Positions 2,151 to 11,971 of a stretch of 13,257 nt of DNA are shown here, one piece after another. Numbering within the stretch: the stretch's first letter is position 1; every line of letters begins with the position of its first letter. This DNA comes from Candidatus Electronema aureum (GTDB taxonomy: Bacteria > Desulfobacterota > Desulfobulbia > Desulfobulbales > Desulfobulbaceae). The translations under genes were made by a program, and so were the position numbers. Under the pieces are notes generated by a model that worked only from the letters and a program-made list of their open reading frames with translations, did no database searches and was not told the DNA's origin. The stretch covers positions 1-13,257 of the forward strand of contig NQJD01000050.1 of the NCBI GenBank assembly GCA_004284765.1. The letters run 5' to 3'.

Positions 2151-2609
2151 TTACTTGCCTTCCGCAATCATGCGGATAATGTCCGACGTGCCGATCACCC
2201 CGATTAATTGCCCGTTCTCATCCAGCACCGGCAGGGTATGTATCTTTTTTTCCGCCATCAGGGTAGCAACTTCCTCCAGCGGACTATCCTGCCGCACAGT
2301 GAGCGGATTGCTGGTGTAAATGTCTTTCACCTTGGTACCAGCCATCTTCATCATTTCCTTTTCCATTTTCTCAGGGTCTTCAAGAAAGAAAAAGGCATCC
2401 AGAATGGCAAAGGCTGTGGGAATATGCACCTTTTTATTTTGAAAGATCAGGTCGCTTTCTGTAACCACGCCGATCACTTTTCCTAAGCCATCAACCACTG
2501 GTACGCCGCTGATTCGGTTAGCGGCTAAAATTTTAGCCAGCTCGCGCACTTCGGTTTCTGCGGTTACGGCGATGACGTTGATGCTCATCAGGTCTTTTGC
2601 TGTCAACAT
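2151..2609 (-). CDS. CBS domain-pair protein
   Basis: 152-aa ORF with two CBS-like repeats ('DLMSINVIAV...ISGVPVVDGLGKVIGVVTESDL' and 'DIYTSNPLTV...IHTLPVLDENGQLIGVIGTSDII'). GAGGAA SD lies just upstream of ATG 2609. It is convergent with the + strand gene ending at 2143 (7-nt gap). Confidence 0.85.
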   Translation of the reverse strand: MLTAKDLMSINVIAVTAETEVRELAKILAANRISGVPVVDGLGKVIGVVTESDLIFQNKKVHIPTAFAILDAFFFLEDPEKMEKEMMKMAGTKVKDIYTSNPLTVRQDSPLEEVATLMAEKKIHTLPVLDENGQLIGVIGTSDIIRMIAEGK

Positions 2610-2620
2610 GCTGTGTTCCT

Positions 2621-4219
2621 CTATTGGTATTGAATTTGGTTTATCTGCGTGACCGCAAAGGGCAGTGCTGCCGCGACCTCTGCTGCGGTGAAACCCTGCC
2701 TTCGTTCCTCGGCCAGCAGGTCAGCGGCCAAGCCGTGCAGGAAAACTCCGGCTGCTGCCGCATCCCAAGGTGTATAGCCTTGCGCCAGCAGTCCGCCGAT
2801 GAATCCGGCCAGCACATCGCCCATGCCACCGACAGCCATACCGCTGTTGCCGCTGCTGTTGATCGCCCAGCCCCCTTTGTTTGAGCAGACCACAGTGCCT
2901 GCGCCTTTCAGCACCGTGATGATTTCGTGGTTGTCTCGGATTTCCGCTTCTGCCAGCCAGTCTGCCGCCTTGAGCCGATCTGCCTGAATCTCCGCTGTCC
3001 GCAAGCCGGTGAGTCGAGCCATTTCGCCGGGATGCGGCGTAAGAATACGCGGCCCGGCAATCTCTCTTATGCAGCATGGCTCCAAGGACAGCAAGTTGAG
3101 CGCATCGGCATCTACCAGCAGAGGCGCGGGCAGCTCTTGGTGTAGTCGCCGTACCAGTTTGCCGGTCTCTGGTGCGGTGCTTAAACCAGGGCCGATAATC
3201 GCCGCATCCTTGTCGGCCATGAGGATGCGGATCAGTTTATAATCAGCCGATGACAGACATCCGTCCGAATGTGGTAGCAGCACCGTCATCGCTTCTGGCA
3301 GACTGGCGGCAAAAATCGGATTCAGTGCAGCTGGCACAGCCAGCGTCACCAAGCCGCAGCCGCTACGCAAGGCCGCTTTGGCTGCTAAGATGGCTGCACC
3401 GGTTTTACCTTCAGAACCGGCCAAAATGAGCAGATGACCGAAGCTACCCTTATGGGCTGCCTTGGCACGAGGCAGCAGCAGCGCAGCGACGCTCCGACGA
3501 TTAAGCAGCTGACCGGACAGTTTGGCAGAAGCAATCACCTGCTCTGGGATCCCGATGTCCACGACCTCTAGTTTACCGACCGCCGTGCCGCCGTGCAGAT
3601 AATGCCCCGGCTTGGGTAAACCGTAGGTCACGGTTAAATCCGCTTCAACCACGCAACCCAGCGGCATTCCAGTCTGAGCACAGAGACCGGAAGGAATATC
3701 CACCGCTGTTATCGGCCAGTGCTGCCGCCGAGCAAGATCATTGATACAACGAACAGCAGCGGCAAAGCGGCCTTCGAGCTTGCGGCTCAGGCCAATGCCG
3801 AACAGAGCATCGACTATACTGTGAATTGGATGATCAAAATGCAGTTGCTTGATTTTATCAATGAGCTGAGAAATTTCCTCTTCTTTGCGAATGATGCAAT
3901 GGGCGATCCAGAGCTTGCCGCAGATGCCCGCATTAATTGCTGCATCACCTTTTAACTGTTCTGGTTCGACCAAAAAAATGAGCAAAGGTGAGCCGCCGCG
4001 TTGAAGAACATGCCGAGCAATCACCAAACCATCGCCGCCGTTATTGCCCGGCCCGATAAAAATGCAAACGCTCTTGCCACCAACTGGACCGAATTGCGCC
4101 TCCATGCAATCAAGCGTCGCTCGGCCTGCGTTTTCCATCAGCACCAAGCAGGGAATGCCGAATTCCTCAATTGCTGCTTGATCGATGGCCTGCATCTGCT
4201 TTGGGGTGGCTATGTTCAT
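2621..4219 (-). CDS. nnr: Bifunctional NAD(P)H-hydrate repair enzyme (NAD(P)HX epimerase / ADP-dependent NAD(P)HX dehydratase)
   Basis: 532-aa ORF. The N-terminal YjeF_N hallmark is 'IFIGPGNNGGDGLV'. C-terminal carbohydrate-kinase-type motifs are 'GHLLILAGSEGKTGAAILAAKAALRSGCGLVTL', 'VLKGAGTVV' and 'GGMGDVLAG'. Confidence 0.9.
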   Translation of the reverse strand: MNIATPKQMQAIDQAAIEEFGIPCLVLMENAGRATLDCMEAQFGPVGGKSVCIFIGPGNNGGDGLVIARHVLQRGGSPLLIFLVEPEQLKGDAAINAGICGKLWIAHCIIRKEEEISQLIDKIKQLHFDHPIHSIVDALFGIGLSRKLEGRFAAAVRCINDLARRQHWPITAVDIPSGLCAQTGMPLGCVVEADLTVTYGLPKPGHYLHGGTAVGKLEVVDIGIPEQVIASAKLSGQLLNRRSVAALLLPRAKAAHKGSFGHLLILAGSEGKTGAAILAAKAALRSGCGLVTLAVPAALNPIFAASLPEAMTVLLPHSDGCLSSADYKLIRILMADKDAAIIGPGLSTAPETGKLVRRLHQELPAPLLVDADALNLLSLEPCCIREIAGPRILTPHPGEMARLTGLRTAEIQADRLKAADWLAEAEIRDNHEIITVLKGAGTVVCSNKGGWAINSSGNSGMAVGGMGDVLAGFIGGLLAQGYTPWDAAAAGVFLHGLAADLLAEERRQGFTAAEVAAALPFAVTQINQIQYQ

Positions 4220-4234
4220 GGGTATCTTGTCTTG

Positions 4235-5248
4235 CTACGGTCGCATCTCTTGCTTTAACATGCAGCAGGAAATGCGATGTTTTAGACTACCGTCTGGGAG
4301 ATAGTCAAGATTATCTGACTGAAGCAGCTTATTCATCACACAGCCTTCAGGGATGCTCAGATTGAAAAAACGGTCTTCGTTCAGACCCTGCTGCTGCACC
4401 AGCTCACTGTTTTCGATACAGAAACTGTGGATGGGGTAATCCTCACAGAGCGGGCAGCGATAGACCCGACCGTTAGGAAAAACGAAGTAATTTTCCGCTG
4501 CTAACCCAGCACAGGAAAAGGATTCACCCGGCTCCAGAAAAACCTTGGGATAGGTGACGTGGATGCCGAGTCGAGCGGCTTGTCGAGCGGTCTCCGGCAC
4601 GACCTCCAGCCAGCCAGCGCGATCAACTTGGAGGTTTTCCGCGCCACCAGTTGCTGAGTTACCGCGCAGTCCGATGACTTGGATAAAAAAACGCTGCACG
4701 CCCAGCTGAGTAAGCAAGGCGGGCATTCGGTGCAAGTGGTCGATGTTCAGGGCAGAAACCGTGCAAATCAGGCTGGTGCGAAAACCGAGCGAAACCGCCT
4801 GGCGTAGGTTCTCTGTGCAAACCGCAAAAACGCCCTTGCCTCGGATGGGATCGTTCACTGCCGCATCTGGTCCATCTAAGCTAAAGCTGAGGAAATCTAA
4901 CTCCACTGGTCTCACCCGCTTCAACAGGTCGTGAAAAAGAAAGCCGTTGGAATCAACAGTTACGGCATAGCGCAGAGCCTTGGCTGCTCGGATGATCGCG
5001 GCCAAATCAGGATGCAAGGTCGGTTCACCGCCGAGCAAAATCAGATTGCTCTCGCGTTCAGGTCGAGCAAAAAGCCGCAGCCATTGCCGCACAGTTTCTG
5101 TGGGCAGCATGGTCGTGCCGTGCTGGGTCGGATTGATATAGCAGTGGCGACAGGAGAGATTGCACTGGGTGAGCAGGTGGAGGAAGACATTGCGCTCACC
5201 GGGTTTAAAATCAACCGTTCGCGCGATCAATTCGTTGAAATTCTGCAC
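4235..5248 (-). CDS. Radical SAM enzyme with C-terminal SPASM/twitch-like cysteine motif, substrate unknown
   Basis: 337-aa ORF. 'CNLSCRHCY' (CxxxCxxC, nt 5141-5164) and 'LLGGEPTL' are present. The C-terminal motif is 'C-x13-G-x4-C-x2-C-x8-C' (nt 4418-4513), with further Cys at 303 and 328-329. The start must be non-ATG (GTG 5248 or TTG 5230), because the first in-frame ATG (M47) lies after the cluster motif. Confidence 0.8.
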   Translation of the reverse strand: MQNFNELIARTVDFKPGERNVFLHLLTQCNLSCRHCYINPTQHGTTMLPTETVRQWLRLFARPERESNLILLGGEPTLHPDLAAIIRAAKALRYAVTVDSNGFLFHDLLKRVRPVELDFLSFSLDGPDAAVNDPIRGKGVFAVCTENLRQAVSLGFRTSLICTVSALNIDHLHRMPALLTQLGVQRFFIQVIGLRGNSATGGAENLQVDRAGWLEVVPETARQAARLGIHVTYPKVFLEPGESFSCAGLAAENYFVFPNGRVYRCPLCEDYPIHSFCIENSELVQQQGLNEDRFFNLSIPEGCVMNKLLQSDNLDYLPDGSLKHRISCCMLKQEMRP

Positions 5249-5738
5249 AAGTGTATGAAGCCAGCAGGCTGCCCTGCCAGTAAGAGTGCTCTTGAAAAAA
5301 GCGAGCGAAGAGAGCCAAACTCTCGTTGCGCAGCAGGCCCGGTAGCAGATCCACGTGCATTTCCCGATAGAGCGGTGCTAACTGCGCTAACGGCAACGCG
5401 GTGCCGCCGCCCATCACGTCTTCATAGGCCCAGATAAAACGGCGGATGCCAGAAAGCAGCAGGGTGCTAAAGCACATCAGGCAGGGTTCGAGTGTCGAAT
5501 ATACCGTAATCTTGCTACAATCCACGCGGGGCTGCTCGGCTAACAGACTGCGCAGGGTGATACTTTCGGCATGATCCAGCTCGTTGCGCGATGCGCTGCC
5601 ACTGTTGCGGCGACGGCCTTGGGCGAGAATTTTTCCATCCAATGCCAGCACACAACCAACCGGAAACTCACCTGCTTCTAACGCCAACTGCGCTTCGGCT
5701 AAAGCCACCTCCATCAATTGCTTATCCTGAACGATCAT
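5211..5738 (-). CDS. CDA-fold nucleoside/nucleotide deaminase (TadA / guanine-deaminase-like)
   Basis: Zinc-deaminase motifs 'HAE' and 'PCxxC' occur in 'ELDHAESITLR...VYSTLEPCLMCFSTLL' (nt 5472-5573). The N-terminus 'MIVQDKQLMEVALAEAQLALEAGEFPVGCVL' is typical for the family, so ATG 5738 is preferred over the track's ATG 5810, which would overlap the upstream gene by 71 nt. No obvious SD. The upstream stop (5740-5742) is 1 nt away, suggesting coupling. Confidence 0.75.
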   Translation of the reverse strand: MIVQDKQLMEVALAEAQLALEAGEFPVGCVLALDGKILAQGRRRNSGSASRNELDHAESITLRSLLAEQPRVDCSKITVYSTLEPCLMCFSTLLLSGIRRFIWAYEDVMGGGTALPLAQLAPLYREMHVDLLPGLLRNESLALFARFFQEHSYWQGSLLASYTCAEFQRIDRANG

Positions 5739-5739
5739 A

Positions 5740-6981
5740 TTACAACGTTCTGCCAAAATGGAGGATACTTTTGTTGATAGCCACGCCGGTCTGCGATTGC
5801 ACCCAGTCATGGTGCTGATCTTGAAAAGGAAGATAAATCAATGAGGTGGCTATCGTTTCTGGCTCTGCGCTGGGTAGCTTAGAATAGAGAGCAGGCCCGT
5901 TGGCGGCGGAGAAGGCCAGCATAACCTTGATGGCTTGCCGTGCCTCATTGAGAGGTAGCGTCACAGGGTATAGATTGGCAACCGCCTTGATTTTCAGGTC
6001 TCTTTCTGTCCCAAGCTGTCGTTGACTGACAGTGATTTGCTTGCCGGTGCGAAGAAAAATTTCTGGCCGTAGCTTAAAAGCTGGAATCCAGAACTGCATG
6101 GCCTGATTGCGCCATTCCGGGCGGACTACCATTGGCTGGTTTGTACGCTCGATGAAATCAGCAAAGGTGCGGATATCCAGAGTAGAAAGCCGGACAGCGA
6201 TCTTCCAAAAAGGTAAGTGCAAGGCTGCCTCATCTTTGTTGCTGAGTATGGTTCTACAAAGCATCCGCTCTAATCCATGAGCAGCAATCTGCCAAGCTGT
6301 ATCGCAGTTGGTGCAGGTAGTTACAAGGCAGTCGCCTTCGCCGTCCAAATTGCCGCCACAGCGTGGACAGAGCGCAGCGAGAAATTTCATTTGCCAGTGC
6401 GACTGAAAAGGGACACCGCCCAAGGCTTGACTTGAGGCGGTCAGTGGTTGCCCTAAAACCGCATCGAACAGCCCGTCTTCCCGGATCAATAGGGGAAGAT
6501 AGATAAAACTGATGATTTCACCAATAAAGGCATGATGATAGACAATGCTATCATTGTTCCCATCGATCAAGTTGTGGAGCTTGGTTGCCTTTTCAAAAAC
6601 CTTTTTGGCTTCAATCGCAAGAGGTAAAAAGCGGCCTTTTGTCTCACTGCTGACCCGAACAAGGCTCATAGTTTGGGGCCGCAGACCGAGGGAAGCGGGC
6701 AATCCGGGCAGGCCGCAGCCGTCTTGGGTGGTGTCCACAATCCGGTGCGAGACCCCAGAAGCAGCCACGGAAAAAATATTGCCCTTGAAACGGAGATAGG
6801 GAGCATAAACTAACCGAGCCTGATCTTTGGCCCGGTTTGGGAGGGAGTAGCGGAACGGCCCACCCCCGGTGAGAAGAAAGTTTTTCACCTTGCAGTAGGG
6901 ACAGGTCAATAAGCGGTCAGCCGCTGAGAGCGTGACCGCACCGCCGCACTGAGGGCAAGGCTGTTCAACCCGGATGTTCAC
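5740..6981 (-). CDS. Hypothetical protein with two zinc ribbons and an internally duplicated architecture
   Basis: 413-aa ORF. Zinc ribbon 1 is 'CPQCGG..x12..CPYC' (nt 6892-6957). Zinc ribbon 2 is 'CPRCGG...C....CTNC' (nt 6304-6369). Each is followed by ~170 aa ending in 'IYLP(L/F)'. The GTG start overlaps the SPFH stop (GTGA, 6978-6981). I recognise no family. Confidence 0.7.
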   Translation of the reverse strand: MNIRVEQPCPQCGGAVTLSAADRLLTCPYCKVKNFLLTGGGPFRYSLPNRAKDQARLVYAPYLRFKGNIFSVAASGVSHRIVDTTQDGCGLPGLPASLGLRPQTMSLVRVSSETKGRFLPLAIEAKKVFEKATKLHNLIDGNNDSIVYHHAFIGEIISFIYLPLLIREDGLFDAVLGQPLTASSQALGGVPFQSHWQMKFLAALCPRCGGNLDGEGDCLVTTCTNCDTAWQIAAHGLERMLCRTILSNKDEAALHLPFWKIAVRLSTLDIRTFADFIERTNQPMVVRPEWRNQAMQFWIPAFKLRPEIFLRTGKQITVSQRQLGTERDLKIKAVANLYPVTLPLNEARQAIKVMLAFSAANGPALYSKLPSAEPETIATSLIYLPFQDQHHDWVQSQTGVAINKSILHFGRTL

Positions 6982-8006
6982 AGCTTCAGGCCGCAGCCGT
7001 GGCAGAATTTAGCCCCAGACAGATTTTCACTATTGCAGGCCGAACAGATAACTGTCGCAGGTTTTTCGTCAGTGGCGTGACCACAATGCGGGCAGAAACG
7101 GGACTCAGCAGCAACAGCTTTACCGCAAGCAGAACATTGTGTTTTTGCAGCAGATTGATTGTTCTGCATTCCAGCGAAGAGATGAGGCATCATCAGTCCC
7201 ATACCCATGCCGAGACCGGCTCCAGCCTCGTTGCCAGCGGCGGCAGCTTTTTCCATCGCCATTGCCGCTTTCATGCGAACAAAGCTATCCATATCCTTGA
7301 TCAGGCCGAGACGGCTGCGGTCGTCGATAGCGGTTTGAACTTCGTCCGGCGGGGTGATGGAGCCGATATAGAGTTCATCTAAGGCCAGTCCGAAGCGGGA
7401 AAAATCGCTGATCAGTAGCTTTTTCAGCTCCTCCGCCATTTCATTAAACTGCGCGGGCAGGCTAAAAAGCGTGTCAAGCGTCTCGCCGAGATAGTCATTG
7501 AGCCGGGAAACAATCACCCGACCCAGATATTCCTCTATTTGCTCAGTGCTGTATTTGCCCATCGTTCCGGCCAAGGTGTTGATGAACAGCACCGGTTGGA
7601 TGACCCGAACATTAAAGATACCATGCGCCCGCAGACGAACAAAGCCCAGCTCGGAATCGCGGAAGGCCACCGGATCACGAGTGCCCCATTTCAGGTTGGG
7701 AAAAACCTTGAGATTAATAAAATAAACCTCAGCGCGCAGCGGACTGGTCATGCCCCACGGCGCAGAGAGCAGCTTGGTGATGATTGGGATGTTGCCGGTG
7801 CGCAAGGTGTGGCGACCCGGCCCGAAGGCATCACCTGCCCTGCCTTTATAATACATGACTGCGGCTTGACTTTCCCGCACAGTGAGCTGGGCACCGAACT
7901 TGATTTCCCCGGAGCCGCGCTCCGGCAGACGGTGCAACAGTTCTTGGCCGGTCTCATCGAACCATTCTAAATTTTCAAGAAAGATCAAGTTGTCAGTACT
8001 ACTCAT
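6978..8006 (-). CDS. SPFH/band-7 (COG4260, YdjI-like) protein with C-terminal double zinc ribbon
   Basis: 342-aa ORF. The N-terminal 'LEWFDETGQELLHRLPERGSGEIKFGAQLTVRESQAAVMYYKGRAGDAFGPGRHTL' matches the YdjI-type SPFH pattern from memory. A Gly/Met-rich linker leads to 'CSACG..FCPHCG' and 'CSACN..FCHGCG' (nt 6993-7136). GGAG SD lies 6 nt upstream of ATG 8006. Confidence 0.85.
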   Translation of the reverse strand: MSSTDNLIFLENLEWFDETGQELLHRLPERGSGEIKFGAQLTVRESQAAVMYYKGRAGDAFGPGRHTLRTGNIPIITKLLSAPWGMTSPLRAEVYFINLKVFPNLKWGTRDPVAFRDSELGFVRLRAHGIFNVRVIQPVLFINTLAGTMGKYSTEQIEEYLGRVIVSRLNDYLGETLDTLFSLPAQFNEMAEELKKLLISDFSRFGLALDELYIGSITPPDEVQTAIDDRSRLGLIKDMDSFVRMKAAMAMEKAAAAGNEAGAGLGMGMGLMMPHLFAGMQNNQSAAKTQCSACGKAVAAESRFCPHCGHATDEKPATVICSACNSENLSGAKFCHGCGLKL

Positions 8007-8030: not shown

Positions 8031-8522
8031 TTAGAGCTGATACAGAGTTTCATCGCGGACAGGTTGCTTGCTGCCGAAGCGGACTTTCTTCTTCAGCCCG
8101 TCCAAGGAAAAGGCATCATCCGAGTTCAGCGAATCACCCATGTCCTTTTCGACTTCATCAGGGTCTTCGCCTGCCTCCATCCGTGAGATCGCCTCTTCCA
8201 TCTGCTCACCCAAATTGATGCCGGTTTTGTCCGAAAACTTACGCATTAGCTGGGCCATCTGACGGGGATCGTCCTCGTTTAGGCCCTCGGCTTCACGCAT
8301 CAGACCTTCAATAGCCTGTTCCATTTTACTTTCATCAATTCCGGCTAAAGGATCATCATTGCTTTCCTTGGCCTTGCCGATAACAGCAAAGGAGGATATC
8401 TGCCGGTTCAGCTCCTTTCTGCCGCATTTCGGGCAATCCGGGCGTTTTTCGGTGTTGATTCGGCTGGAAAGGAAATTGAAGATCGTGTTGCAGTCTTGGC
8501 AAAGAAATTCGTAAATCGGCAT
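8031..8522 (-). CDS. FmdB-family (CxxC_CxxC_SSSS) zinc-ribbon protein with acidic C-terminal tail
   Basis: 'MPIYEFLCQDCNTIFNFLSSRINTEKRPDCPKCG' (Cys pairs at nt 8424-8501) is the classic FmdB N-terminus, so ATG 8522 is preferred over the track's 8570. The remainder is Asp/Glu-rich. Confidence 0.8.
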   Translation of the reverse strand: MPIYEFLCQDCNTIFNFLSSRINTEKRPDCPKCGRKELNRQISSFAVIGKAKESNDDPLAGIDESKMEQAIEGLMREAEGLNEDDPRQMAQLMRKFSDKTGINLGEQMEEAISRMEAGEDPDEVEKDMGDSLNSDDAFSLDGLKKKVRFGSKQPVRDETLYQL

Positions 8523-8560
8523 GATGGTGTACGCTTCCCTGTATTCTGGGTGGAAAATGA

Positions 8561-8596
8561 AAAAGATCAAGCACCCGCAAGGATACCTGATCTTTT
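8561..8596. terminator. Candidate hairpin separating the DUF1566 genes from the fmdB-led operon
   Basis: A 9-bp inverted repeat, AAAAGATCA (8561-8569) / TGATCTTTT (8588-8596), has an 18-nt loop and T-runs on both strands. The AT-rich stem and large loop make it weak. Confidence 0.3.
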
Positions 8597-8642: not shown

Positions 8643-9182
8643 CTATTGCATATCACGCACGAGGCGGACTCCAAGATTCTCAGAAGAGAGTGAACCATAC
8701 AGCATCTCCGCAAAATAAAAATTAATGTACCATGCATTGCTGGCATCAGGCAAAGGTGAATTGGACCATACAGAAGAGATAGACGTGCTGGGGAATATGG
8801 TCAAATTAATTGCAGGATTATAGCATTGCTCTTCCACGATGGACTGTAGTTCTTTGATGTTTGGTAACCGCCAGTTTTCGTAGTTAGCAAATTTTGTTGC
8901 GTTTGCTACTCCAGGCCGTGCCAGCGCATTGCTCCATGTGTAAAGCGAGGCTGTACCCGCTGCTGCCGCGCAGGTGTTGTTGGCACTGGAATAATTAAAT
9001 CCCTCCGGGCATCTCTTCCACATTAGCTTAGTTTTACTGTCCGTGACGGTACCGTCACTACCTCCTACCAGATGATTGGTTGAGGCAACTATAGTGGTGC
9101 TTTTACATATCTGCTGCTGCGCCTGCGAAGAACCCGCTACAAAAAATAACGCGATAACAAAAAAATATATACGTATCTGCAT
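8643..9182 (-). CDS. Secreted DUF1566 (Lcl C-terminal domain-like) protein
   Basis: The signal peptide 'MQIRIYFFVIALFFVAGSSQA|QQQ' starts at ATG 9182, preceded by AGGAGA. DUF1566 pattern: 'DGTVTDSKTKLMWKRC', 'NWRLPNIKELQSIV', 'VWSNSP...AWYINF', 'GVRLVRD'. Confidence 0.8.
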   Translation of the reverse strand: MQIRIYFFVIALFFVAGSSQAQQQICKSTTIVASTNHLVGGSDGTVTDSKTKLMWKRCPEGFNYSSANNTCAAAAGTASLYTWSNALARPGVANATKFANYENWRLPNIKELQSIVEEQCYNPAINLTIFPSTSISSVWSNSPLPDASNAWYINFYFAEMLYGSLSSENLGVRLVRDMQ

Positions 9183-9204
9183 TGTATATCTCCTGTGGCA
9201 TGAT

Positions 9205-9234
9205 TTTATAAGGTGCTGTGCATATCTCAAGCAA
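9205..9234 (-). promoter_or_regulatory. Candidate promoter for the 8643-9182 gene
   Basis: On the minus strand: -35 TTGCTT (9229-9234), 18-nt spacer, -10 TATAAA (9205-9210), about 20 nt upstream of the SD. Consensus match only. Confidence 0.3.
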
Positions 9235-9248
9235 GCAGGTCAAAACAA

Positions 9249-10118
9249 TCAATTTGCTGTTCTGACTAAAATTACGCTGATGGTGCTGGTTTCTGTCTTG
9301 TAGTACAACCCAAATGTGCTGCCTGTGGTAAATTTAACTGCCCATGCGCTTGCTGGATCTGCGGCATAAGGAGTCGCACTCCAGAAAAACTTGTTGGCTG
9401 TCATCCCGGAAAAATAGTTTTGATCTACAGCCAATGTCGTGCTGCTGCTCTTAACAATACCCAGTAGTTCCTTGATCGTGGGCAGCCGCCAGCCCGACGA
9501 GGCTCCACATAACTTATTTGTATTAGCCAATGCAGCATAACTTTCCGTGTTGGCTCCACCGTTTTCATTGCCAGCATTTCCTCCATTTTTGGAATTATCA
9601 CTGTTGAACCAAGGACGTTCTGAAGGATTGGCTTGTATTTCCCACATCAGGCCGGTGACATTGTCTTTAACACAAGCCCAACTTGTTGCGGATGCGGCAA
9701 GAGCAGTTCCATTGCTATCCAGCTTAGTGAAACTGAATCCTGCATGACCATCAGAAGGAACGGTATCCTGCACTGTTTTATCTCTGCCATAATCAGCGTC
9801 CTCCTGACCAGTGTTTCCTACTTTAGCAGTAATACCGGTGTCATTCAGCCCGCCTGTCGGAGTTGGAGTGCAGGGTTTACAAGGGTCGGCGCAGGTAGGA
9901 TAACAAGGCCCTGCTATACAGCTAGGGTAAGCTATGCACTGAGGATCGCATTTGACACAAGGATCAGGACATCCTGGATAACACTGTGTACAGCCATACG
10001 GTGTGCAATCAGTTTTCTGGACAACAAGAGGCGGTATGTCTAATATCAACTTAGCAGAACCTATTGATGGCACAGTCACAGCAGTCATCAATCCCAATAG
10101 CAAGTACATTTTTTTCAT
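9249..10118 (-). CDS. Secreted DUF1566 (Lcl C-terminal domain-like) protein with N-terminal Cys/Pro-rich module
   Basis: ATG 10118 is preceded by AGGAGG. Signal peptide: 'MKKMYLLLGLMTAVTVPSIGSA|K'. A 12-Cys stretch spans nt 9870-10007. DUF1566 pattern: 'VKDNVTGLMWEI', 'GWRLPTIKELLGIV', 'FWSATP...AWAVKF', 'ILVR'. The track's upstream start (10190) lies upstream of the predicted promoter. Confidence 0.8.
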   Translation of the reverse strand: MKKMYLLLGLMTAVTVPSIGSAKLILDIPPLVVQKTDCTPYGCTQCYPGCPDPCVKCDPQCIAYPSCIAGPCYPTCADPCKPCTPTPTGGLNDTGITAKVGNTGQEDADYGRDKTVQDTVPSDGHAGFSFTKLDSNGTALAASATSWACVKDNVTGLMWEIQANPSERPWFNSDNSKNGGNAGNENGGANTESYAALANTNKLCGASSGWRLPTIKELLGIVKSSSTTLAVDQNYFSGMTANKFFWSATPYAADPASAWAVKFTTGSTFGLYYKTETSTISVILVRTAN

Positions 10119-10148
10119 TGTGAAACCTCCTTGGCAAATTTTCTTTTT

Positions 10149-10157
10149 ATTATAGCA
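10149..10157 (-). promoter_or_regulatory. Extended -10 promoter element (TGcTATAAT) for the 9249-10118 gene
   Basis: The minus strand reads TGCTATAAT (10157-10149), with its 3' end 30 nt upstream of ATG 10118. A possible -35 TTGCGA sits at a 19-nt spacing. Confidence 0.45.
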
Positions 10158-10210
10158 CAAAACAAATTCTCTGTCGCAAATCTTTTGCATAAAACCACCT
10201 CTTTCTTCAC

Positions 10211-10234: not shown

Positions 10235-11315
10235 ATGCGGCAAGCACCGTATCCACATCCTCTTCCCGTACTTGATCGGTGATTTTCACCGCACCGATGC
10301 GCTCTGGCAGGACATAGAAGACCCTGCCGCCGACGGTTTTCTTGTCGGTGAGCAAGTATTTCTTTATTTCCTCGCGATTGATATTGGCAGGAATAGCGGT
10401 CGGCAGCCCATAAGCGGCAATCAGGCGGCGGATGCGCTCGGCAGACTCTGTGGTTAAACAACCACTGCAAACGGCCAGTTCCGCCGCCGCACACATGCCG
10501 ATGGCTACTGCATAGCCGTGAATAAGTTGAAAGCCGGAAGCCGCCTCCACTGCATGGCCGATGGTGTGGCCGAAATTGAGAATCCGGCGCAGACCGCCTT
10601 CACGCTCGTCCTGTTCCACCACCCACGCCTTGATCTCGCAGCAGCGGGCGATGAGCTTGGTCAGCACGTCCTGCTGGAGAGCAAAGACAGCTTCACGCTG
10701 CTGCTCCAGAAATGCGAAGAACTCGGCATCGTTGATCACCCCGTACTTGATCACTTCGGCAATACCGCCGCGCAGCTCATCAGCTGGCAAAGTATTCAAC
10801 ACATCGATGTCGATATACACCGCCTTGGGCTGGTAGAACGTGCCGACTAAATTCTTGCCTTCCGGGATGTCCACGCCGGTTTTGCCGCCGACCGAGCTGT
10901 CCACCTGCGAAAGCAGGGTGGTCGGCACTTGAACAAAAGGTATGCCGCGCAGATAGATCGAGGCGAGAAAGCCGGTGATATCACCGGTTACGCCGCCGCC
11001 AAGAGCGATGAGCGCATCTTTGCGGTCAAAACCACGTTGGGCTAATTCGCTGGAAAGCGCGGTGACCGTCTGGAGATGCTTGCTCGCCTCGCCAGCGGGA
11101 AAGGTGAGCAGCTCGGCCCGGATACCTGCATCAGTCAACGACTGCATAAAACGGCTGCCGTGCAGCGCGGCCACCCGGTCGTCGCTGATCACGCCGTATT
11201 TCGTGCCGATGTTCCGTTCGTGCAAATCAATGCCGATTTTCTCCAGCAGGCCAGAGCTGATCCGAATCGGATAACTGCGTTCGTCCAGCCCGACTTTCAC
11301 TAAAGTTTTTGTCAT
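10233..11315 (-). CDS. aroB: 3-dehydroquinate synthase
   Basis: 360-aa ORF with hallmark AroB motifs 'LGGGVTGDITGF', 'VPTTLLSQVDSSVGGKTGV' and 'LNFGHTIGHAVE'. Confidence 0.92.
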   Translation of the reverse strand: MTKTLVKVGLDERSYPIRISSGLLEKIGIDLHERNIGTKYGVISDDRVAALHGSRFMQSLTDAGIRAELLTFPAGEASKHLQTVTALSSELAQRGFDRKDALIALGGGVTGDITGFLASIYLRGIPFVQVPTTLLSQVDSSVGGKTGVDIPEGKNLVGTFYQPKAVYIDIDVLNTLPADELRGGIAEVIKYGVINDAEFFAFLEQQREAVFALQQDVLTKLIARCCEIKAWVVEQDEREGGLRRILNFGHTIGHAVEAASGFQLIHGYAVAIGMCAAAELAVCSGCLTTESAERIRRLIAAYGLPTAIPANINREEIKKYLLTDKKTVGGRVFYVLPERIGAVKITDQVREEDVDTVLAA

Positions 11316-11971
11316 CTTTCGTCTGTCCCCTCGTTCTTCATGAAACCGCTGACGATCGTTTTGAGAAATTTCAAGATGCTGAAAATGGCCTTGAGGTCTT
11401 CATGACGAGTTGCCAAATATCCCTCGCTGATGGAATAACTGCGCTCTTGCAGGGTCATGAAATGCCAGACTTCTCCTTTGACGTAACAGCCATAGACCGG
11501 CAGGCGGTGCTGATTGATCTCCTGCGCGACCAGCATGGCCGCAAGCACCTGTCCGGCAGGATCGCCCTCTGGGTCTTTCTCCTTTTTATATTCGTGTAGG
11601 CAGAAATACGGCTGCTGCGGTTCGCGGAAACCAGAAGCGATGATGCCGTCCGGCCTGCCGTTCATTTCAATCTCATCAACTGTGCCGCTCAAAGAACGTT
11701 CAGCGAAAAAATTGAATTTCTTCGAGCTGAATCTGACAAGTGCCATCACTGGGCCGATGAAATTATAGGCCAGCTCAGTTTCATTCCAGTCATACACATG
11801 TGCTACGAGCAAACTGCGGAATGAATCCAAGACCTCTTGCTCAAAAGGAGAAATTTCAGTTTGACCAGCCAGCCAGCTTTTGAGAACTGGGCTGTCGTCC
11901 GCGACAGTGAGGCCGAAGGTTCGGTCTAATTCAGCCAAAGTCCATTCTTTAAAAGTGCGTACAGATTTCAT
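11312..11971 (-). CDS. PD-(D/E)xK nuclease-fold protein (HsdR-N-terminal-like), function unknown
   Basis: 219-aa ORF. 'GRPDGIIA...YFCLHEYKKE' supplies the D...ExK motif (nt 11585-11650), followed by 'GDPAGQVLAAML'. Its stop overlaps the aroB start (ATGA, 11312-11315). Confidence 0.65.
   Translation of the reverse strand: MKSVRTFKEWTLAELDRTFGLTVADDSPVLKSWLAGQTEISPFEQEVLDSFRSLLVAHVYDWNETELAYNFIGPVMALVRFSSKKFNFFAERSLSGTVDEIEMNGRPDGIIASGFREPQQPYFCLHEYKKEKDPEGDPAGQVLAAMLVAQEINQHRLPVYGCYVKGEVWHFMTLQERSYSISEGYLATRHEDLKAIFSILKFLKTIVSGFMKNEGTDER

Follow-up and report, generated by a model that had tools for sequence, protein, structure and literature searches.

In Bacillus subtilis the SPFH protein YdjI (SamI) reaches the membrane only with the membrane proteins YdjG (SamG) and YdjH, and then recruits PspA (PMC8581546). 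YdjG and YdjH form a two-hybrid interaction network (PMC8581546), and these two membrane proteins have been proposed to fulfil the sensing/anchoring role (PMC8581546; bioRxiv 10.64898/2026.02.06.704340). SamI combines an SPFH domain with a low-complexity region and a zinc finger (bioRxiv 10.64898/2026.02.06.704340), while in YdjG two zinc ribbons precede an uncharacterised NTF2-like domain, related to YpeB, and a transmembrane segment (PMC11237479). Here we analyse a 13,257-nucleotide (nt) stretch of the Candidatus Electronema aureum genome (contig NQJD01000050.1, hereafter the window), in which a gene for an SPFH protein is followed directly by a gene for a 413-amino-acid (aa) duplicated zinc-ribbon protein that we label ZR2. 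To our knowledge, work on bacterial SPFH proteins of the YdjI/SamI type has been confined to B. subtilis, and there the roles of the partner proteins are only beginning to emerge. We read ZR2, with moderate confidence, as a soluble and pseudo-dimeric protein, stabilised by zinc, that is probably an accessory of the YdjI/SamI-type SPFH protein whose gene lies directly upstream. The features on which it rests are as follows.

5740..6981, minus strand: ZR2 gene (413 aa), stop codon included, defined by its open reading frame (ORF), homologue sets and an AlphaFold2 model
6385..6981, minus strand: N-terminal unit, residues 1-199, ribbon 1 plus domain, from hhalign against the C-terminal unit with controls
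6892..6957, minus strand: zinc ribbon 1, C9, C12 ... C27, C30, from cysteine conservation and sub-threshold matches to zinc-ribbon families and RpoP
5743..6384, minus strand: C-terminal unit, residues 200-413, ribbon 2 plus domain, from profile alignment and the AlphaFold2 model
6304..6369, minus strand: zinc ribbon 2, C205, C208 ... C223, C226, from cysteine conservation and IBR_1/DZR matches below curated cut-offs
6978..6981, minus strand: GTGA overlap of the ZR2 start with the SPFH gene stop, from codon reading and comparison with related loci
6978..8006, minus strand: partner gene for a Band_7_1 SPFH protein of 342 aa (Pfam Band_7_1 E=2.4e-60, plus zinc-ribbon families)
6990..7136, minus strand: C-terminal pair of zinc ribbons in the SPFH protein, residues 291-339, from the Pfam scan

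ZR2 arose when a unit of one Cys4 zinc ribbon and one alpha/beta domain was duplicated in tandem. An earlier note on this DNA, drawn from the letters alone, had proposed such a duplication (zinc ribbon plus a domain of ~170 aa) on the basis of four pairs of landmark motifs, and had named a half-versus-half alignment with a significance estimate as a way of checking it. When the two halves of the single sequence were compared the ribbons alone aligned (blastp E=0.006; Smith-Waterman z=3.9, an equal score being reached in 3 of 1000 shuffles), so that profiles were needed. The halves, residues 1-199 and 200-413, were therefore cut from homologue alignments. Profiles of 36 close homologues aligned with 90.8% probability (P=1.2e-6) over 60 columns, with a second colinear match at SFIYLPL/SLIYLPF. 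Profiles of 133 diverse homologues, 28-47% identical to ZR2, made the comparison clearly significant (hhalign probability 97%, P=1.1e-10), the alignment beginning at the first cysteine and reaching the last hairpin, with 163 columns aligned in local mode and 178 in extended mode. The half-versus-half score was 71.1, against at most 20.4 in 31 controls consisting of one reversed and 30 column-shuffled C-terminal halves. Ribbon-only profiles gave P=1.1e-8, and ribbon-free domain profiles gave two colinear matches (P=2.2e-4 and 5.5e-4). All four of the landmark pairs that had first suggested the duplication (CPQCGG/CPRCGG, YAPYLRFK/HLPFWKIA, FLPLAIEAKK/VTLPLNEARQ and SFIYLPL/SLIYLPF) fall in aligned columns, joined by a fifth pair, SLGLRPQ/AFKLRPE. 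The proposed duplication is thus upheld by the profile statistics, by controls that score far lower and by a matching order of secondary structure in the two halves.

Both ribbons are under strict conservation. C27, C30 and all four cysteines of ribbon 2 are invariant in the 133 diverse homologues, while C9 and C12 are cysteine in 125 of them and fall in a gap in the other eight, whose N-terminus is truncated; four CxxC motifs are present in 240 of 254 full-length members of the family. Near-invariant or invariant residues other than cysteine in the family alignment are D83, D173, D275, R101, Q103 and E20. An AlphaFold2 model of ZR2 built from the family alignment reached a predicted local distance difference test score (pLDDT) of 87.5 and a predicted template-modelling score (pTM) of 0.86. 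Its two halves show one and the same order of elements: four short strands of the ribbon come first, then a short strand and a long strand or hairpin, after which a helix leads to a long hairpin and a last strand. The domain itself is modelled as two long beta-hairpins with a helix between them. In the C-terminal half two short helices at residues 273-292, which carry the highly conserved FADFIERTNQP, stand in for the second strand of the first hairpin. No membrane-helix segment was found in ZR2, whose highest 19-residue Kyte-Doolittle value is 1.39 (family median 1.17), and in 268 of 270 family members no such window reaches 1.8.

The family to which ZR2 belongs is real, well conserved and unnamed. 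The earlier note could name no family for it, and our searches agree, since Pfam, NCBIfam, PDB sequences and Foldseek against PDB and BFVD all failed to return a family match. Pfam and NCBIfam gave nothing above threshold, the best Pfam match being IBR_1 with 18.7 bits against a cut-off of 27. When 58 diverse members were scanned singly we found sub-threshold zinc-ribbon families alone, and nothing for the ~170-residue domain; DZR matches 53 of these 58 and is likewise sub-threshold for ZR2 itself. A profile search of all PDB sequences returned ribbon proteins only, such as RpoP and S27, and Foldseek searches of the ZR2 model against PDB and BFVD gave no match (best E=0.09, TM-score about 0.1). 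The PHROGs scan was negative, and a PADLOC scan for known anti-phage defence proteins left ZR2, the SPFH protein and an FmdB-type protein of the same window unmatched. The family is large: a word-indexed search gave 881 clusters at 90% identity, and at 50% identity there are 1098 representatives that pass E<=1e-3, 457 of them reaching E<=1e-30. Among the best 150 matches all complete proteins span both units, shorter entries being partial and looking like fragments. Relatives were confirmed in 256 species-level genomes, mostly of Desulfobulbales and other Thermodesulfobacteriota, with at least one member in Nitrospirota; the closest genome locus is that of Candidatus Electronema nielsenii (98% identity), which places the window in a freshwater cable bacterium of the Desulfobulbaceae. 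Literature searches on the SPFH-ZR2 dyad or the ZR2 family returned nothing beyond the B. subtilis and phage shock protein (PSP) papers. The domain of YdjG has been described as YpeB-related (PMC11237479), and by eye each ZR2 unit has a PepSY-like ending, with a helix P-x-T/A-L-x-x-x-E-A, a beta-hairpin and a further strand, a lead which no search supported. None of the 58 members matches PepSY or any other non-ribbon Pfam family, and Foldseek against PDB came back empty.

The first ribbon is encoded only if translation begins at the GTG at 6981, the start that the earlier note had chosen, and comparison with homologues settles on the same codon. This GTG is the first start codon past the upstream in-frame stop TAA at 7009-7011, and no other start codon retains ribbon 1; of the later candidates, TTG (codon 25) and GTG (codon 32) would each remove the first CxxC, and an ATG does not appear before codon 105. 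The SPFH stop TGA (6978-6980) shares bases with the GTG in the sequence GTGA. Homologues begin at the matching alignment position with M-x-I-x-V-E-Q-x-C-P-Q-C-G, other Electronema genomes have an ATG there 1-3 nt past the SPFH stop, and many further genomes have an ATG 0-3 nt past it, the GTGA overlap recurring at loci L001 and L005.

The SPFH partner is composed of an SPFH domain, a low-complexity segment rich in Gly, Met and Ala and two C-terminal zinc ribbons, and no transmembrane segment was found in its 342 aa. It aligns with B. subtilis YdjI over the full length at 26% identity (E=9e-30). Both ends of the YdjI query agree with the primers in PMC8581546. We mapped the genes of the window onto 80 related species-level loci, and in 70 of these ZR2 directly follows a Band_7_1 SPFH gene of the same strand. 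This SPFH gene is the sole conserved neighbour of ZR2. The other neighbours vary while it is kept, so that the conserved unit is a two-gene dyad. Within the 70 Thermodesulfobacteriota loci the two genes overlap in three, and lie 0-30 nt apart in 37, 31-100 nt apart in 25 and more than 100 nt apart in five. The dyad is also kept in four distant loci with wholly different surroundings (L081, L082, L084 and the Nitrospirota contig L083), in the last of which the upstream gene is truncated and has the typical Gly/Met-rich segment and ribbons at its end. Eight Electrothrix loci (L009-L016) and two others are the exceptions. The specific link to the SPFH gene that the earlier note had suggested is well supported by these counts, while its stronger claim, that the two proteins are stoichiometrically coupled, must be weakened, given that the 4-nt overlap occurs in just two of the 70 loci, that spacing is variable and that adjacency has been lost in Electrothrix. 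In L082 (998-7509) ZR2 paralogues of 523, 494 and 502 aa stand in tandem behind the Band_7_1 gene with its zinc ribbon; all three have an additional third CxxC...CxxC ribbon at the C-terminus, and the gene row also holds an 80-aa protein with two transmembrane segments and a DUF502 membrane protein.

We compared ZR2 with YdjG, as the earlier note had advised, and found a common genomic slot and a likeness over the ribbon and the first domain strand, within differing architectures. The YdjG query matched one database protein at 100% identity and, at 99%, B. subtilis entries under the name 'TFIIB-type zinc ribbon-containing protein'; YdjG carries Pfam Zn_Ribbon_TF. A tblastn search of plasmids and chromids identified 12 divergent YdjG homologues (23-30% identity). 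Six of their regions were opened, and in all five that are annotated (Enterococcus, Vibrio, Comamonas, Tsukamurella and Paracoccus; the Pseudorhodobacter record carries no annotation) the homologue lies directly downstream of an SPFH gene. Pfam assigns all five of these SPFH genes to Band_7_1, with a varying C-terminal module (ZnR, GYF_2 or HTH_17). The pairs lie at about 2600-5260 in each of L086-L089 and L091. YdjG-type proteins thus stand behind Band_7_1 genes in Bacillota, Proteobacteria and Actinobacteria, and the slot occupied by ZR2 in Thermodesulfobacteriota is the YdjG-type slot elsewhere. Positional equivalence of ZR2 and YdjG is therefore observed directly. At the level of sequence, a shallow Bacillus-only YdjG profile matched the ribbons of ZR2 alone. 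With the profile widened to 245 sequences by plasmid-borne and proteobacterial homologues, the N-terminal unit aligned at 95.9% probability (P=5.2e-9) from the second ribbon of YdjG to its M-Y-I-P-F-W strand, across a YdjG insertion of ~31 residues that forms a helix in the YdjG model, and the C-terminal unit at 93.5% probability (P=2.2e-7) from the second ribbon to the Y-x-P-F-W strand. With the ribbons removed the strand alone gave P of about 4-6e-4 for both units, above 60 of 60 shuffled controls; a merged profile of the N- and C-terminal units brought no gain. An AlphaFold2 model of YdjG runs from ribbon and ribbon through a strand, a helix, a long hairpin, helices and a second long hairpin to a transmembrane helix, an order of elements that appears to parallel one ZR2 unit; Foldseek of this model against PDB found no match. 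Taken over the ribbon and first domain strand, the alignments suggest that ZR2 is probably a distant relative of YdjG.

Two neighbouring genes bear on the extent of the conserved unit.

5211..5738, minus strand: cytidine/tRNA-adenosine deaminase-like gene (Pfam/NCBIfam), 1 nt downstream of ZR2 (TAA-T-ATG)
8031..8570, minus strand: FmdB-type zinc-ribbon protein upstream of the SPFH gene (Pfam/NCBIfam; neighbour comparison)

The earlier note had placed ZR2 in a larger cluster, of which only the SPFH-ZR2 dyad is conserved. The deaminase gene and the radical S-adenosylmethionine (SAM) gene downstream accompany ZR2 throughout Desulfobulbales, to which they are confined, and the FmdB-type gene accompanies the dyad in part of Desulfobulbaceae only. 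The deaminase ORF as listed (5211-5810, minus strand) overlaps ZR2 by 71 nt; its start is most likely the ATG at 5738, 1 nt past the ZR2 stop. Against the TadA equivalog model (cut-off 150) it reaches 64.5 bits. The radical SAM protein (4235-5248, minus strand) has sub-threshold matches only, to ScmF (86 bits) and prokaryotic viperin (62-71 bits). The FmdB-type protein has an acidic C-terminal half and probably starts at Met17 (MPIYEFLCQDC) in place of the listed TTG. Further upstream lie two secreted Lcl_C (DUF1566) proteins (9249-10190 and 8643-9230, both minus strand), the larger of which has a striking Cys/Pro-rich stretch past its signal peptide (CTPYGCTQCYPGCPDPCVKCDPQCIAYPSCIAGPCYPTCADPCKPCTP). 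A 219-aa ORF between aroB and a Sel1/TPR protein (11312-11971, minus strand) has no Pfam match.

The reading that best accounts for these observations is that ZR2 is the Thermodesulfobacteriota/Nitrospirota counterpart of YdjG, soluble and internally duplicated. In the line of ZR2 the transmembrane anchor has probably been lost and the whole unit duplicated. By analogy with the action of YdjG/SamG and YdjH on YdjI/SamI, ZR2 would bind the SPFH protein or its oligomer and organise or regulate its assembly. One chain would offer two related but non-identical binding surfaces, with which it could, more speculatively, bridge two SPFH subunits or engage the two C-terminal ribbons of the SPFH protein. 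Neither ZR2 nor its SPFH partner has a membrane anchor, so that any membrane association would depend on another protein or on the Gly/Met-rich segment of the partner. Whatever role ZR2 may have in envelope-stress handling is one that we infer. The earlier note had also seen in ZR2 a possible specificity or sensor subunit, a view that is not supported as it stands, the sensing and anchoring role proposed in B. subtilis falling to the membrane proteins YdjG and YdjH and ZR2 being without a transmembrane segment.

Several observations weigh against this reading. The C-terminal transmembrane helix of YdjG, to which its anchoring role falls, is absent from ZR2, and the operon with PspA and TPM (YdjH) seen in Bacillus has no equivalent here, neither PspA nor TPM being found among the 14 ORFs of the window scanned against Pfam. 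This operon feature is also missing at several proteobacterial and actinobacterial YdjG loci, and among the five annotated YdjG homologue loci a TPM (YdjH-like) gene is present at that of Enterococcus only. With the 245-sequence profile nothing significant was found between ZR2 and the YdjG domain past the first strand, and a likeness by eye of the last hairpin (IYLPF...QTG versus LLPVW...NGQTG) was rejected, a targeted test falling within the range of controls. The AlphaFold2 model of YdjG, moreover, is of moderate confidence (pLDDT 68.7). Finally, the eight loci of the marine cable bacteria Electrothrix, L009-L016 (e.g. L014 2846-7925), have a hybrid histidine kinase upstream of ZR2 and no SPFH gene within 6 kb, from which it follows that adjacency is not obligatory; ZR2 is fully conserved in them and the deaminase gene still follows it.

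A broader picture, which we put forward tentatively and think rather unlikely, is that ZR2 has a so far unclassified fold and may form, with the anchor-less Band_7_1 protein, a wholly cytosolic SPFH assembly, the pseudo-dimeric ZR2 capping, nucleating or loading the oligomer. Band_7_1 plus a zinc-ribbon protein would then be an ancient two-component core, and the PspA-YdjGHI membrane-stress system one membrane-tethered derivative of it.

Four other explanations were weighed, and we rank all of them below the accessory-protein reading. SPFH genes are usually paired with a single dedicated partner gene, as in SPFH-NfeD operons. On the model of HflK/C cages enclosing FtsH, or of NfeD paired with stomatin-like SPFH proteins, ZR2 could be a client, a cargo or an enzyme controlled by the SPFH assembly and not an adaptor. 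The dyad evidence fits this equally well, as does the usual pairing of SPFH genes with one partner, and D83, D173, D275, R101, Q103 and E20 could make up an active or binding site. However these polar residues form no recognisable catalytic motif, no likeness to an enzyme family was found in Pfam, NCBIfam, PDB sequences or Foldseek, and the positional equivalent YdjG acts as a recruiting factor in B. subtilis (PMC8581546), which together make a client or enzyme unlikely.

Less probable again is a nucleic-acid-binding regulator whose TFIIB/RpoP-like ribbons bind DNA or RNA and turn the status of the SPFH protein into a change of expression. The ribbons do weakly resemble RpoP, ribosomal S27/L37ae and TFIIB-type ribbons, YdjG has Pfam Zn_Ribbon_TF, and DNA binding is possible for a ribbon of this type (bioRxiv 10.1101/2021.02.15.431232). 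These ribbon matches nevertheless all lie below curated cut-offs, reflecting a generic Cys4 knuckle, while ZR2 contains no helix-turn-helix (HTH) or other nucleic-acid-binding domain and there is no experimental hint that YdjG binds DNA. Slightly more doubtful still is the view that ZR2 acts together with the deaminase and radical SAM genes behind it in nucleotide or tRNA modification, its link to the SPFH protein being incidental. Three-gene synteny with ZR2 throughout Desulfobulbales, the single nucleotide between the ZR2 stop and the deaminase ATG, and the survival of the ZR2-deaminase adjacency in Electrothrix where the SPFH gene is gone are all consistent with it. Both genes are however absent beside ZR2 in loci from outside Desulfobulbales (other Thermodesulfobacteriota lineages, unclassified metagenome-assembled genomes, the Nitrospirota locus L083 and other distant loci), where the dyad persists, and the deaminase looks like a housekeeping enzyme of the TadA type. 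That the duplication itself is an artefact of two independent zinc ribbons and chance likeness of beta-rich sequence is very improbable, for although single sequences align at the ribbons only and the ribbon-free profile matches are modest (P about 2-5e-4), it is opposed by the full-unit P=1.1e-10 over 163-178 colinear columns, by controls of at most 20.4 against 71.1, by five colinear motif pairs and by the equal order of secondary structure in a high-confidence AlphaFold2 model.

These findings have consequences beyond this locus. The partnership of a Band_7_1 SPFH gene with a two-ribbon protein behind it spans at least five phyla, and in Thermodesulfobacteriota (including the cable bacteria) and Nitrospirota the partner takes a soluble form with an internal duplication. 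The ZR2 family, which exceeds 1000 clusters at 50% identity and for which we found neither a Pfam model nor a structural relative, is a clear candidate for the definition of a new domain family. As a natural anchor-less variant, ZR2 could serve to separate the effect of the ribbon-plus-domain unit on the SPFH protein from that of membrane tethering.

Among known systems, NfeD proteins are the classical operon partners of stomatin-like SPFH proteins, and like ZR2 they are encoded by a dedicated partner gene in a two-gene operon with the SPFH gene. NfeD proteins are however membrane proteins with an OB-fold domain, and an NfeD identity for ZR2 was rejected as it has neither a Pfam/NCBIfam match to NfeD nor a transmembrane segment. 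The SPFH protein of the window shares with YdjI/SamI the Band_7_1 domain (PF13421), the Gly/Met low-complexity segment and C-terminal zinc ribbons, although it is just 26% identical and has two ribbons where YdjI/SamI has one. YdjG and YdjH are membrane proteins and ZR2 is without a transmembrane segment; YdjG-like proteins have a median maximum 19-residue Kyte-Doolittle value of 2.23, located at 94% of their length. YdjG is arranged as ribbon, ribbon, domain and transmembrane helix, with ribbon 2 and the first hairpin separated by an additional helix, whereas ZR2 is arranged as ribbon, domain, ribbon and domain. The two families nonetheless have much in common. Both have two Cys4 ribbons, with four CxxC motifs in 230 of 240 YdjG-like proteins as in the 240 of 254 full-length ZR2 members, and both ZR2 and, outside Bacillus, the YdjG-like gene lie directly downstream of a Band_7_1 SPFH gene. 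In both a ribbon is followed by a Y-x-P-F/Y-W strand, aligned at about 94-96% probability, both domains are modelled by AlphaFold2 as two long beta-hairpins parted by helices, and both domains are without a Pfam model and without a Foldseek match in PDB. ZR2 is a new architecture of the YdjG-type partner of Band_7_1 proteins. It does not amount to a system of a new kind, but widens the phyletic reach of a little-studied SPFH module.

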